From: a virus
Lineage: Duplodnaviria; Caudoviricetes
IMG/VR virus record: IMGVR_UViG_3300032329_000171
Location: 1-31,339 of that record
Length of the DNA: 31,339 bases
Reading direction: 5' to 3' (one strand)
Shown here: in pieces, positions 2,055 through 22,920 of the stretch
Position numbering within the stretch: position 1 is the first letter of the stretch
How the letters are laid out: each line of letters opens with the position of its first letter
Translations under genes and position numbers: made by a program
Notes under the pieces: generated by a model
The model's database searches: none
What the model was told of the DNA's origin: nothing
Seen by the model: only the letters and a program-made list of their open reading frames with translations

Positions 2055-2687
2055 ATGCAATTGACTACATTCTCCTCGGCAAATCTGCCAGCCGTTTCCA
2101 CCTTGTCCACTGCCCTGCGCGCGCTTGAAAAAGACGTCGGCCCAGCCGGTACTGTCATCCTGAAAATGGACAAGACAGGCCATTGGGTCTTTGGTGCAGA
2201 CCAGACCGAAGTGGAAGACGACGCTCTGTGGGCGATCAATCCTTTCTCGTTTATCCACGGCTTCATTGCTTGGGGTGACGGTGAAGTGTTGGGCGAAAAG
2301 ATGGTTGGTGTGTCTGAACCTTTGCCAGAACTCGACGGCGCTCCCTCGGGTGCCAAGCGTGGCTGGGAAACTCAGATCGGTATGTCACTCAAGTGCACCA
2401 CTGGTGAAGACAAGGACATGGAAGCGCGCTTTACGACCACTTCGGTGGGCGGCAAACGCGCAGTCCAGACCCTTGGCGTTGCCATTGCTACGCAAGTTGA
2501 GAAAGACCAATCCAAGCCTGTGCCAGTCGTGCGTCTGAAGAAAGACCACTACCAGCACAAGTCGTTCGGCAAAATCTACACGCCAGTGTTTGAGATTGTT
2601 GAGTGGGTTGGCCTTGATGGCGCATCTGATGAGCCTGAAGCAGCGCCCGAAGCGCCTGCCACTGGCCGTCGTCGCCGTAGCGTTTAA
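2055..2687 (+). CDS. Putative single-stranded DNA-binding protein
   Basis: Sits between the Cas4-like nuclease and PolA, the SSB slot in this module type. Beta-rich with aromatic residues (YQHKSFGKIYTPVFEIVEW) and a low-complexity tail. Function is inferred from position. Confidence 0.6.
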   Translation: MQLTTFSSANLPAVSTLSTALRALEKDVGPAGTVILKMDKTGHWVFGADQTEVEDDALWAINPFSFIHGFIAWGDGEVLGEKMVGVSEPLPELDGAPSGAKRGWETQIGMSLKCTTGEDKDMEARFTTTSVGGKRAVQTLGVAIATQVEKDQSKPVPVVRLKKDHYQHKSFGKIYTPVFEIVEWVGLDGASDEPEAAPEAPATGRRRRSV

Positions 2688-2692
2688 TTAAC

Positions 2693-2840
2693 GGGGGTGA
2701 AAGAATCTCGGTCTGGGAGTAGTGGTACCCTCCATTTAAGCCCGGTTGGGTTGTGTGTAGCTTAGTCTGGTTGAGCACCTCATATCGAGGAAGGCGTTGG
2801 TTCAAATCCAGCCGCACTTAGAGATTCAAGTAACCCCCAC
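2693..2840 (+). ncRNA. Structured RNA element 1: long closing stem with a loop-E-like motif enclosing two hairpins and a tRNA-like domain
   Basis: GGGGGT/ACCCCC and GAATCTC/GAGATTC stems separated by a GAA/AGTA internal loop. Inner hairpins GGAG/CTCC and AGCCC/GGGTT. tRNA-like fold at 2753-2817. Confidence 0.65.
2753..2817 (+). other. tRNA-like domain with truncated anticodon arm (pseudo-tRNA)
   Basis: TAGCTTAGTCTGGTTGAGCA D-arm, GTTGG-TTCAAAT-CCAGC T-arm and GTGTG/CGCAC partial acceptor stem. The anticodon arm is only CCTC-ATATC-GAGG and there is no CCA. Confidence 0.7.
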
Positions 2841-2850
2841 CTTTTTAATC

Positions 2851-2942
2851 GGGGGCTGTTAAGCCAGCGTTCGAGGATGGTGACTTGCGGATTTTCTGGC
2901 TTTCTCCCGCAACTTGTCGAAACCCAAATCGAAGCCCCCACC
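2851..2942 (+). ncRNA. Structured RNA element 2 with predicted pseudoknot, directly upstream of DNA polymerase
   Basis: Nested pairings GGGGGCT/AGCCCCC, TTCGA/TCGAA, GAC/GTC and TTGCGG/CCGCAA. AAGCCAG (2861-2867) is complementary to loop CTGGCTT (2896-2902). Confidence 0.65.
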
Positions 2943-2958: not shown

Positions 2959-4875
2959 ATGGTTTATATCGACTTTGAGACGCGCAGCCGATGCGATCTC
3001 AAGAGCAAAGGCGTTTACAACTACGCGCAAGACTTAAGCACTGAAGTTCTGTGCATGTCTTACGCCTTCGACGATGACGAGGTGCAGACATGGACGTCTG
3101 GCCCGTTGCCTGACTTCACAGGCCACATGATCTACGCCCACAACGCCGCCTTTGAGCGGCTGATCTTTTGGTACGTGCTGCAACAGAACTACCCCCTTGA
3201 GTCGTTCTACTGCACGGCCACCCAAGCCCGCGCTAATTGCGCGCCTGGTGGCCTTGAGGACGTGGGGCGCTTCGCTGGCGCGGTCATGAAGAAAGACCAT
3301 CGCGGCTCACAACTGATCCGGCTGCTCTCTATCCCAAAGGCCGACGGTACGTTCAACAACGACCCGACCCTGATGGCCGAGATGATTGCTTACTGCGAAC
3401 AGGACGTGCGTGCCATGCGTGCGGTCAGCAAGGCCATGCGGCCCCTATCCGCTGACGAACTGCTCGACTACCACGTCAACGAACGCATTAACGACCGTGG
3501 CCTGATGGTTGACGTGCCCCTGTGTCAAGCCGCCGTCAAGTACGCTGGCGCTGAGATGGACGAGATTCAAAAGATCGTCGCCGAAGTGACAGACGGTCAG
3601 ATCACGTCGGTGCGCTCACCCAAGATGCGCGAGTGGGTGCTGGAGCGTGTCGGGCCAGAGGCCAAGAAGCTGATGTGGACTGGCGAGAAATATTCCATTG
3701 ATAAAACTGTGCGGGCGAATCTGCTTGCGATGGAGAACCATGATGAAGTTCCGCCCGATGTGGCCGAAGTTATACAGTGCGCCGATGACCTCTGGGCGTC
3801 GTCGGTTGCGAAGTTCAGCCGCCTTGCGAGTTTGGCAGATGAGGAAGATGCCCGAGTTAGAGGTGCCTTTGTTTTTGCTGGAGGCAGTGCAACAGGGCGC
3901 GCTTCGTCGTACGGCGCTCAAGTCCATAATCTCCCGCGTAAAAGCGCTCAAGACCCCGAAGCCGTCCGCACAGCAATGGTTCGAGGCCATGAAATCGTGC
4001 CACGATTCGAAAAACGCATTACAGACGTTTTGAAGAAAATGCTACGCCCTGCCATCGTGGCAGCGCCTGGTAATGTCCTGATCGCCTACGACTGGTCGGC
4101 CATCGAGGGGCGCGTGCATCCGTGGCTGTCCAACTGCCCAGCAGGCGAGGCCAAGCTGGATGTGTTCCGCTCGGGCCTTGATCCGTACAAAGTCAACGCA
4201 ACCGCGACCTTTCGCGTGGCTTACGACGATGTGACGGGCGACCAGCGCCAAGTGGGCAAGGTGCAGGAACTCGCGCTTGGCTTTCTAGGCGGCGCAGGAG
4301 CGTTCGAAGTGTTCGGGCGTGCCTACGGTATCCACCTGTCCGCTGGCGAGGTTGCGCGGGCTGTGGAGGGCTGGCGCAGGGCTAATCCGTGGGCTATGCA
4401 GCACGGCCGCCGCTTAGAAGATGCGTACCTGCGCGCCATGAGAAACAAAGGGCATGAATTTGCTGCGGGTCGTGTTGTGTACTTGTTCGATGGTCAGACC
4501 CTCTGGTACAGTCTGCCTTCCGGCCGGGTGCTTTGCTACCCTAACGCCAAGTTTGACGAAGAAGGTAACGTGACGTACACCAAAGCAGCTTGGAAGCCTG
4601 CCGCCGACGCGACAGAATGGCCCCGCGCCCGTCTGTGGCGTGGCTTGGCTTGCGAGAACGTCACCCAAGCCGCCGCGCACGACATCTTGCGTCATAGCCT
4701 ACGCGCCCTTGATGGCGTGATCGCTCACGTCCATGATGAGATCGTCGTCGAGTGCGCCGAATCAGACGCTGAAGCCATATCCGCACACATCCATCAAGTC
4801 ATGTGCACACCGCCCGCATGGGCCGAGGGTTTACCCTTGGCCGCTGAAGGTGTGACAACGAGGCGTTATAGCTAA
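2959..4875 (+). CDS. polA: Phage family A DNA polymerase with 3'-5' exonuclease domain
   Basis: ExoI YIDFETRS, ExoII AHNAAFE, TGRASS, motif A YDWSAIEGR, motif B RQVGKVQELALGF and motif C HVHDEIVVE. Confidence 0.95.
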   Translation: MVYIDFETRSRCDLKSKGVYNYAQDLSTEVLCMSYAFDDDEVQTWTSGPLPDFTGHMIYAHNAAFERLIFWYVLQQNYPLESFYCTATQARANCAPGGLEDVGRFAGAVMKKDHRGSQLIRLLSIPKADGTFNNDPTLMAEMIAYCEQDVRAMRAVSKAMRPLSADELLDYHVNERINDRGLMVDVPLCQAAVKYAGAEMDEIQKIVAEVTDGQITSVRSPKMREWVLERVGPEAKKLMWTGEKYSIDKTVRANLLAMENHDEVPPDVAEVIQCADDLWASSVAKFSRLASLADEEDARVRGAFVFAGGSATGRASSYGAQVHNLPRKSAQDPEAVRTAMVRGHEIVPRFEKRITDVLKKMLRPAIVAAPGNVLIAYDWSAIEGRVHPWLSNCPAGEAKLDVFRSGLDPYKVNATATFRVAYDDVTGDQRQVGKVQELALGFLGGAGAFEVFGRAYGIHLSAGEVARAVEGWRRANPWAMQHGRRLEDAYLRAMRNKGHEFAAGRVVYLFDGQTLWYSLPSGRVLCYPNAKFDEEGNVTYTKAAWKPAADATEWPRARLWRGLACENVTQAAAHDILRHSLRALDGVIAHVHDEIVVECAESDAEAISAHIHQVMCTPPAWAEGLPLAAEGVTTRRYS

Positions 4876-12275: not shown

Positions 12276-12422
12276 ATGAAACCCGGACTCTACGCTAACA
12301 TTCACGCCAAACAAGCCCGCATCAAGGCTGGCTCTGGTGAAAAAATGAACAAACCAGGCAGCAAAAACGCGCCTACCGCCAAAGACTTTAAAGAGTCGGC
12401 TAAAACTGCGAAGAAGAAATAA
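12276..12422 (+). CDS. Small Lys-rich protein (48 aa, not in ORF track)
   Basis: MKPGLYANIHAKQARIKAGSGEKMNKPGSKNAPTAKDFKESAKTAKKK*; TAATG coupling to the next gene. Confidence 0.78.
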   Translation: MKPGLYANIHAKQARIKAGSGEKMNKPGSKNAPTAKDFKESAKTAKKK

Positions 12423-12850
12423 TGGCTAACACTAAACCAATCGGCGTCGCATACGAAGACCAGAACATTATCGGCGCGGATATTGTCAAGGCCGCTAACA
12501 TCGCTACCACAGGCACGATTGGTTATGCCGCTGGTGCATACGACACTGTAACGCAGCAGAACAACAAAACGACCGGCGTAACGATCAATACGCCATCGGG
12601 CCAAATCATCACGGCTAACGCTCAACTTGCGCCAAGCGCAAACGCTGTGTTTGTGGTTACTTGCAGCACTGTCAGCACCAAAGATGTCGTGGTGATCAGC
12701 GTATCTTCGGGCGGCACTGTGGGCGCGTACAACGTGTTTATCGCGGCCATCGCTGACGGCTCGTTTACTGTGGTGATTAAAAACATCACGAACAACGCCT
12801 ATTCTGAGGCGCTGCATTTGAACTACGCCATATTCCACACAGCCACTTAA
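12422..12850 (+). CDS. Putative virion structural protein, paralog of 22513-22920
   Basis: T/V/A-rich beta protein that aligns by eye end to end with 22513-22920. Confidence 0.75.
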   Translation: MANTKPIGVAYEDQNIIGADIVKAANIATTGTIGYAAGAYDTVTQQNNKTTGVTINTPSGQIITANAQLAPSANAVFVVTCSTVSTKDVVVISVSSGGTVGAYNVFIAAIADGSFTVVIKNITNNAYSEALHLNYAIFHTAT

Positions 12851-13003: not shown

Positions 13004-13203
13004 AAGTCACTACAGCTGCCCGTAAGGCCATGCCCAAGTCTGAGTTTGGTATGCCAGGCTCTCGCTCGTATCCGATGCCAGATAAAGCCCATGCCGTTAA
13101 TGCCAAGGCACGCGCTACTCAGCAGGTAAAAGCTGGCAATCTGTCGCCCTCGTCTAAAGCCAAGATTGACGCCAAGGCCAACAAGATTATCAAGAAAAAA
13201 TGA
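13000..13203 (+). CDS. Small basic protein (67 aa)
   Basis: ATGA coupling at both ends; [15 protein letters not shown] motif; K/A-rich. Confidence 0.75.
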
Positions 13204-13442
13204 TGCTTCGTGCTTTACAAAATTGCTTGCTGATTGAGCGCGATGTTGAAAAGCACGCATTTTTGGAACTGCCGGTTGGTGAAAAATTAGGCACCGGTGT
13301 GGTACTATCCGCCGGACCTGACTGCACTACGTTAAAAGTCGGAGATCGCGTATACTTCGACGTAGGGCAAGAATTCACTTATGACCGCAAGGACTATGTA
13401 GTCATGCGCGAACCTCACGTTTTAGGGGTCTTTAATGGCTGA
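13200..13442 (+). CDS. groES: GroES-like co-chaperonin
   Basis: LRALQNCLLIER, GVVLSAGPD, LKVGDRVYF and YVVMREPHVLGV match the Cpn10 pattern (PL.DRV.V.R, G.V.AVG, VKVGD.V.F, .I..E.DILA). Confidence 0.8.
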   Translation: MMLRALQNCLLIERDVEKHAFLELPVGEKLGTGVVLSAGPDCTTLKVGDRVYFDVGQEFTYDRKDYVVMREPHVLGVFNG

Positions 13443-22512: not shown

Positions 22513-22920
22513 ATGTCAAATACCAAAGCTACTGGCGTTGCATATCTGGATCCCGAATTCAGCACAATGTACGCAACCGAAGAAATCGGTTACTCTGCCG
22601 CTGCTCAAGGTACTGTGACTCAACTGACAAGCAAGTCCACAGCGGTCACGCTGGACAAATCTGCCGGTCGTATCACAATGAACAACGCTTCGTTGACCAC
22701 AGCTACGAATGCCACGTTCACTTTGAACAACGTTTTGATTAGCGCTAACGACACTGTGATTTTGACAATTTCTGGTGGTCAAACGACTCCTGGCTCATAC
22801 AACGTATTTGCCAACTCGCTGTCTACTGGCTCTGTCAGCATTACATTGCGTAACATTTCGGGCGGCACGCTGTCCGAAGCTGTTGTGATCAACTATTGCA
22901 TCATCCACAGCGCAAGCTAA
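22513..22920 (+). CDS. Putative virion structural protein, paralog of 12422-12850
   Basis: Shares NTK..GVAY.D, TVTQ, YNVF and SEA...NY motifs with 12422-12850. Confidence 0.75.
   Translation: MSNTKATGVAYLDPEFSTMYATEEIGYSAAAQGTVTQLTSKSTAVTLDKSAGRITMNNASLTTATNATFTLNNVLISANDTVILTISGGQTTPGSYNVFANSLSTGSVSITLRNISGGTLSEAVVINYCIIHSAS

Follow-up and report, generated by a model that had tools for sequence, protein, structure and literature searches.

A conserved tRNA-like module without an anticodon loop in a larger, predicted loop E-closed phage RNA, and the exchangeable cassettes that share its outer frame

The replication block of the phage record analysed here (31,339 nt, hereafter the window) contains RNA1, a predicted small RNA of 149 nt which, judged by comparison of homologous sequences, is a real, conserved and rare structured element without an Rfam family of its own. 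The outer frame of RNA1 is a chassis common to other swappable cassettes in the same slot, with an RNase P-type RCC end; it was absent from an earlier note that had been made from the letters of the window. This common chassis and the prediction of release by RNase P are what is new here, tRNA mimics being already known as a class. The features referred to below are as follows, the arms and variable loop of the tRNA-like module having been read from the sequence.

2055..2687, + strand: upstream 210-aa gene, probable SSB (OB-fold-like), assigned from position and fold
2691..2846, + strand: 156-nt unit without counterpart in close relatives (joint 2690>2847 in contigs)
2693..2841, + strand: RNA1, whole predicted small RNA (clamp, S-turn, P2, side hairpin, tRNA-like module, ACC tail; four family members: the window, L379, L366 and L174)
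2693-2698 / 2833-2838, + strand: P1, GC clamp (innermost pair U-A in two members, G-C in two)
2699-2702 / 2828-2832, + strand: loop E / S-turn motif, GAA(A) opposite (A)AGTA (GAAA and AGTA invariant in 4/4)
2703-2709 / 2821-2827, + strand: P2, 7 bp (7/7 pairs kept; one two-sided and two one-sided changes)
2713..2745, + strand: side hairpin P3/P4 with a 6-nt loop at 2726-2731 (three pairs with two-sided changes)
2727..2751, + strand: possible pseudoknot of P4 loop 2727-2730 with the invariant linker 2748-2751 (4/4 pairs in all members)
2753..2817, + strand: tRNA-like module (RF00005, 35.5 bits; U8/A9 and elbow nucleotides)
2753-2757 / 2813-2817, + strand: acceptor stem, 5 bp, without CCA after it
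2758-2776, + strand: D arm
2778-2790, + strand: shrunken anticodon arm, 4-bp stem and 5-nt loop
2791-2795, + strand: variable loop, 5 nt
2796-2812, + strand: T arm
2839..2846, + strand: ACC (RCC) tail and T run, where RNase P recognition and 3' trimming are predicted (ACC in 4/4 members)
2851..2942, + strand: RNA2, a second cassette found more often than RNA1, with a GC clamp and an ACC tail of its own and a probable pseudoknot (8/80 relatives; alignment)
2959..4875, + strand: DNA polymerase A gene, 3' of the cassettes (PF00476, E 4.7e-19)

Genomic setting and predicted fold of RNA1

The phage record is about 31 kb long with an estimated completeness of 84%, and its portal and coat genes are P22-like. 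A GroES-like gene (13200-13442) lies immediately 5' of the portal gene, and two separate genes (12422-12850 and 22513-22920) match a single family, phrog_18251. The replication block is ordered as a DUF2800 exonuclease (801-2045), the 210-aa gene, a 271-nt gap, DNA polymerase A and primase, and the RNA1 cassette starts 5 nt past the stop of the 210-aa gene. A Pfam search with the 210-aa protein returned 0 matches, Foldseek returned none at E ≤0.001, and the ESM Atlas returned unnamed clusters only. The protein falls in PHROG 9528, which carries the family label 'nucleotidyltransferase'. Its structural model is of low confidence (pLDDT 58), with weak matches (Z ≤5.4), many of them to OB-fold ssDNA binders; together with the position of the gene, these suggest that the protein is probably an SSB. 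In Caulobacter phages, distant homologs carry the annotation 'polyribonucleotide nucleotidyltransferase', in contrast to the OB-like predicted fold, and that label may be wrong.

At the sequence level, RNA1 has an internal loop, flanked by a helix on either side, in which AGUA faces GAA, with a strand orientation that we take to fit the known loop E / sarcin-ricin motif. The arrangement, with at least five pairs on each side, occurs once in the window when both strands are considered; among 5000 dinucleotide shuffles of the intergenic sequence, 5 contained it and none had it with the observed 6+7 pairs. AGUA opposite GAA is a defined loop E / S-turn motif according to the accessible part of PMC4695836. 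The outer stems that this motif separates had been recognized in the earlier note and lie where it placed them, as do the intact D arm, T arm and 5-nt variable loop, the shrunken anticodon arm (2778-2790) and the 5-bp acceptor stem without CCA (2753-2757/2813-2817). What had been described as two more small hairpins is in fact one interrupted hairpin, in which P3 (2713-2717/2741-2745) carries P4 (2722-2725/2732-2735). The span originally given, 2693..2840, was right in location but too short, as the unit runs on to the ACC tail (2839-2841) and a T5 run that follows it.

The P4 loop could conceivably form a pseudoknot with the linker preceding the acceptor stem. All four of its pairs are present in every member, yet they show one one-sided change only, which is weak evidence; if formed, it is possible that the pseudoknot stacks on the short acceptor stem. 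The folding energy of RNA1 in the window is weak (z -1.9, with 11 of 200 shuffles equally good), and the four members range from z -0.56 to -1.51, with P1 shifted by one column on its 3' side in the constrained energies. A full cloverleaf is missing from the minimum-energy fold. Support for the proposed fold is comparative, drawn from aligned members, and not energetic.

Homologs, covariation and comparison with known RNAs

Three homologs of RNA1 were found, which are 98% (L379), 77% (L366) and 71% (L174) identical to the copy in the window; identity among the three divergent members is 71–80%. Nine collection scans were aimed at RNA1, and true members were counted among the loci that each returned: 0 of 86; 1 of 16, with L180, a locus of a sister frame, in addition; 0 of 41, where ordinary tRNAs prevailed; 1 of 119, previously known, with 49 of 64 parts of the collection covered; 2 of 31, one of them new; 1 of 26, with L400, identical in sequence to L180, in addition; 2 of 5 and 2 of 19, none of them new; and 0 in a scan of bacterial and archaeal genomes. 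The corrected covariance model R2 gave 0 matches in 151 genomes of the family of G006, a run that had no positive control and is hence uninformative. L366 was recovered with a pattern naming the outer frame only, and its interior is again an anticodon-less cloverleaf with other stem sequences. Because the pattern did not name the interior, the tRNA-like character of L366 is an independent result.

In the four-way alignment all 42 proposed pairs are standard in every member (168 of 168 cells), and eight pairs, spread over P1, P2, P3, P4, the anticodon-position stem and the T stem, change on both sides; the set comprises four members, two of them 98% identical, thus three independent sequences, from which the structure itself was drawn. 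None of 500 column shuffles reached the pairing or covariation score, a count that the tool warns is not a probability, and slid controls paired at 34–57%. The nucleotides U8, A14, G18, G19, U54, U55, C56 and A58 are invariant in all four members, and the tertiary 15-48 (Levitt) pair, G-C in the other three, is replaced by A-U in L174. Covariation of the Levitt pair together with an invariant elbow is as expected for an L-shaped core under selection, and RNA1 very probably has an L-shaped fold. The loop at the anticodon position measures 4, 5, 6 and 6 nt across the members, with no common sequence, and the variable loop 4–5 nt. The acceptor stem of 5 bp (6 possible in L174) runs on into P2.

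The Rfam tRNA model RF00005 matches 2751-2820 with 35.5 bits against a gathering score of 29 (E 4.6e-5 in 3 kb), the sole gathering-level match in the window. The earlier note had suggested Rfam as a check that might remove the novelty of the element; no family besides tRNA matches RNA1. It had also expected tRNA finders to return a pseudo or undetermined call; ARAGORN finds no tRNA in the window. RNA1 shares with canonical tRNA the D arm, T arm, variable loop and tertiary nucleotides. It differs in lacking the 5-bp anticodon stem and 7-nt loop (a 4-bp stem and 4–6-nt loop in 4/4 members), in having an acceptor stem of 5 instead of 7 bp without an NCCA end, and in being embedded in a larger RNA. 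Cultured phages yielded only partial, tRNA-like matches in BLAST.

These data bear on whether RNA1 is a captured tRNA fragment, decaying or hitch-hiking in a mobile cassette without function. At 71–80% identity not one of the 168 pair cells is broken, and all members have the same truncated design; that the 42 pairs hold in all four sequences, with eight two-sided changes and covariation at 15-48, argues that RNA1 is not a decaying tRNA. Its rarity (three homologs from nine collection scans), patchy distribution and weak folding energy would suit such a fragment, as would a D arm like that of ordinary phage tRNAs and the prevalence of tRNA-Pro among BLAST labels. On the sequences at hand this reading is largely refuted, and we regard it as very improbable. 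The opposite proposal of the earlier note, a conserved tRNA-shaped module in a larger loop E-closed RNA, is borne out: homologs exist, none is an ordinary intact tRNA, and the stems covary, as does the Levitt pair.

Theta and HDV-like tRNA-linked ribozymes and the T-box are known RNA families, with a nested double pseudoknot as a characteristic. For these there was no Rfam match up to E 10 in the comparison with RNA1, and the side hairpin, by eye, is without HDV topology. In outline RNA1 is built like YrlA (RF02553), a Y RNA of bacteria and mycobacteriophages. According to the available parts of PMC4201824 and bioRxiv 10.1101/312249, the long terminal stem of YrlA carries a tRNA-like domain that has a conserved D/T elbow but neither an anticodon loop nor a free CCA. 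However, YrlA is permuted (T before D), its acceptor is loop-closed, and it is attached via the anticodon stem and adjoins Ro60, whereas RNA1 has the normal D-then-T order, is attached via an open 5-bp acceptor stem and has no Ro60 neighbour. A TROVE/Ro60 gene was found neither in the window nor in five related records, which are partial (two are at least 90% complete). RF02553 gave 0 matches in the window, where the model is a weak judge, as the YrlA-like locus of ET08 scores only 24.6 bits; that locus has a T-type arm early, compared with D before T in RNA1. The YrlA motif GNCGAAN0-1G near the 5' end does not occur in RNA1, which has T in the window and G in L366 and L174 at the C position; the motif fits some copies of cassette family B (see below). 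An identity with YrlA was rejected on arm order, the lack of a Ro60 neighbour and the lack of an RF02553 match.

The stable RNA C of phage T4, or species 1 RNA (NC_000866 70908-71046), is about 140 nt long and includes a T arm; its function is stated as unknown in the accessible text of PMC9697503. It differs in lying inside a tRNA cluster and in showing no clamp or S-turn frame. Homology was rejected, since models R1 and R2 match only tRNA-Thr and tRNA-Pro in L406. E. coli pre-4.5S RNA and the C4 RNA of P1/P7 have, in the part of PMC11143913 available, a G-rich closing stem followed by ACC, and both ends of 4.5S RNA are nearly like those of RNA1 and the other cassettes in its slot; the interior of RNA1 is, however, unrelated, with no SRP or C4 match in Rfam. 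No description of RNA1 was found in the literature covered, to which the alignments of Fremin et al. 2023 (PMC10690425) did not belong, and four supplementary files of that paper gave 0 matches to RNA1 motifs or contig ids. The RNA1 family or its sister frames may nevertheless be among the 10,006 candidates of that study.

Exchangeable cassettes and the predicted release by RNase P

Contigs of six of eight public runs (X5, X16, X19, X2, X7 and X9) join 2690 to 2847, skipping exactly the 156-nt unit, and in L001, where the upstream protein is 100% identical, RNA1 is missing and RNA2 stands alone in the slot. RNA1 occurs in 0 of the 80 closest relatives of the upstream gene, of which five end within 60 nt of the stop; that search used model R1, with the 3' strand of P1 off by one column, and the corrected R2 was run on 22 sources. 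RNA1 is found again in L174, a phage with a different replication module. ARAGORN finds 0 tRNAs in L001-L060 (60 of the 80 loci).

Seven other cassette families, the smallest a 24-nt hairpin and the largest a 182-nt fold, fill the slot singly or in twos in 28 of these relatives, L005 included. Counting RNA1 as family H, all eight close with a G-C-rich stem and then ACC or GCC. RCC follows the closing stem in A 9/9, B 12/12 (counted with a pattern not forcing RCC), C 2/2, D 2/2 (on the gene strand), E 3/3, F 3/3, G 5/5 and H 4/4. The rule is not universal: of seven family B copies in bacterial genome records, three have a clear and one an imperfect RCC. The GAA/AGUA motif sits at the same place in families B, C and H, with two B copies reading CAA, and R2 picks up three B copies weakly via this S-turn base. 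The cassettes begin 3–13 nt past the stop of differing upstream genes, ending in an AAPW/AAPPW-type tail in L174 and L431 and in acidic tails in L180, L435 and L436, all of which we take to be SSB tails. The downstream neighbour differs as well, being polA in L366, RNA2 in the window and L379, and an exonuclease in L174. The commonest slot filler (L007-L012, L020, L025 and others) is a 17-nt hairpin that lacks RCC and directly precedes the next gene's ribosome-binding site.

Several of the other cassettes have features of their own. In RNA2, a 7-bp pairing of 2861-2867 with the loop of the inner hairpin co-varies in L034 and, by eye, in L068, which suggests a pseudoknot; RNA2 has no significant Rfam match and 0 BLAST matches to cultured phages, and contigs place it beside unrelated flanks. 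Family B (L002, L006, L045, L047, L051, L056, L060, L062, L064, L067, L078; L430-L436) is a widespread frame: its base is an S-turn, its bulged stem is conserved and its apical insert varies freely. The B copies scanned had no Rfam match, and one copy in a bacterial genome record adjoins a tRNA. In L180 (2488-2638, - strand; same sequence in L400), the cargo on the family B frame consists of a T arm and two hairpins, one D-like and one long. This second tRNA-like cargo has no 7-nt anticodon loop in its predicted fold, is unrelated to that of RNA1 and was apparently captured independently. Family G (second cassette past the stop in L051, L060, L064, L067 and L078) is a rod roughly 70 nt long that has U at -1 and terminates in ACCC, and it comes closest to the ends of 4.5S RNA. 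A long conserved hairpin and a T run precede an inserted ORF, presumably a homing endonuclease from its looks, in L002 (2258-2353), L006 (2269-2362), L067 (2393-2485) and L055. An Rfam search of 18 chosen cassette-bearing loci returned three sub-threshold mir-504 matches only; these are spurious and stem from that long hairpin. Family B copies occur in genome records labelled Polaromonas, Comamonas, Xylophilus and Fluviibacter (four of seven matches), which hints that the host of the window phage is among the Betaproteobacteria.

The 3' trimming of RNAs by host nucleases is well known. The ends of the cassettes resemble those of E. coli 4.5S RNA, which has a 5' G run and a 3' C run with ACCC. 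A closing stem with G+1/C+72 followed by 3' RCC, the pattern of non-tRNA RNase P substrates of the 4.5S/C4 type, is present in 4/4 members and in the eight families. RNase P pairs with the 3' RCC of its substrates, which include pre-4.5S RNA, phage C4 RNA, model hairpins and the T4 gene 32 mRNA, according to the available part of a review (PMC11143913). The common stem and RCC end, as in 4.5S RNA, suggest release by RNase P, and we consider it somewhat more probable than otherwise that RNA1 is transcribed and released by this host enzyme. From the 4.5S-like ends and the use of RCC by RNase P, we infer that RNA1 would be co-transcribed with the upstream probable SSB gene, cut by host RNase P before G2693 at the GC clamp and RCC tail, and trimmed at its 3' end near the T run. 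The inner tRNA module is unlikely to be cut out, charged or decoding, because it has no RCC of its own and only 10 stacked acceptor-T pairs.

In the RNA contigs of four RNA runs, 2705-2845 is uncovered; three of these runs hold cassette-less relatives, and contigs alone cannot show absence. RNA1 is covered in a single DNA run, X1, possibly the source sample. A promoter search returned none tied to the cassette (6 sites versus 5.2 expected by chance).

The same ends would also serve an element acting purely in cis, in which the clamp, RCC and elbow would control how much SSB message there is relative to downstream message, either by attracting RNase P or RNase E or by stopping exonucleases, with nothing acting in trans. 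The smallest slot cassette, a 24-nt hairpin plus ACC (family F, 3/80), the placement 3–13 nt past the stops of different upstream genes and the RNase P cleavage reported for T4 gene 32 mRNA (PMC11143913, accessible part) are all in its favour. A bare hairpin with RCC would, however, suffice for this and leaves the elaborate conserved interior unexplained; moreover, in the window and L379 RNA1 sits ahead of an RCC cassette, RNA2, that was already present. A purely cis role is doubtful.

Possible functions in trans

The reading that we favour, with an overall probability of about 0.35, is that RNA1 acts in trans as a decoy. Once free, RNA1 would present the elbow of a tRNA while having neither an anticodon nor an end that can be charged, and could thereby engage a host protein that recognizes the T loop or elbow of tRNA, the most plausible target being a tRNA-cutting defence nuclease. 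The patchy occurrence and exchange of RNA1 suit an accessory function in phage–host conflict, and an accessory trans role is further consistent with its absence from 80/80 relatives, its occurrence in L174 with another replication module and the second T-arm cargo on the L180 frame. The Cash defence nuclease cuts mainly the T loop and also engages the anticodon loop, as given in the available part of PMC13462974; RNA1 is without an anticodon loop, which counts against a decoy for this enzyme. Septu cuts the variable loop, and phages are described as overcoming it with working tRNAs that replace the cut tRNA and not by a sink (PMC13096335, accessible part). PARIS is likewise described, in the portion of the literature available, as beaten by functional phage tRNAs and not by decoys. 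The decoy reading is ranked ahead of both the purely cis role and a role as a tether.

As a tether, RNA1 would be a stable Y RNA-like scaffold, with the S-turn stem binding one protein and the elbow another, such as a phage or host protein of RNA processing or replication, and with no link to defence. The lack of a YrlA match and of a TROVE/Ro60 gene in the window or the five related records (two at least 90% complete) argues against this, as does an arm order of D then T instead of T then D. The two-module build is nonetheless as in YrlA (bioRxiv 10.1101/312249, available part), and the S-turn base is common to families B, C and H despite their differing cargoes, and we hold the tether as a tentative second choice.

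It appears improbable that RNA1 is a switch which senses a ligand or a tRNA factor and controls the downstream gene, or that the element works as single-stranded DNA, for example as a priming signal. The neighbour on which a switch would act varies between polA (L366), RNA2 (window and L379) and an exonuclease (L174), there is no evident alternative fold over a start site, and the presence of G-U pairs, an S-turn and the tertiary contacts of tRNA speaks for RNA. The possible pseudoknot at 2727-2751 and the location inside the replication module are the points that speak for it.

The decoy reading can be extended to a modular chassis of GC clamp, S-turn and RCC tail behind the SSB stop, released by RNase P and carrying interchangeable cargoes, in which the RNA1 elbow would sponge T-loop-cutting nucleases; such an RNA-only anti-defence platform is unlikely. 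If the decoy reading were true, an unchargeable, non-decoding elbow kept under selection and swapped between phages would represent a decoy strategy, unlike the supply of working tRNAs. Without a decoy role too, the stem and RCC end provide a concrete rule for the making of a set of small phage RNAs without Rfam match, and the analysis bears on the job of RNAs such as T4 RNA C. The window and L001 form a natural present/absent pair for studies of function.
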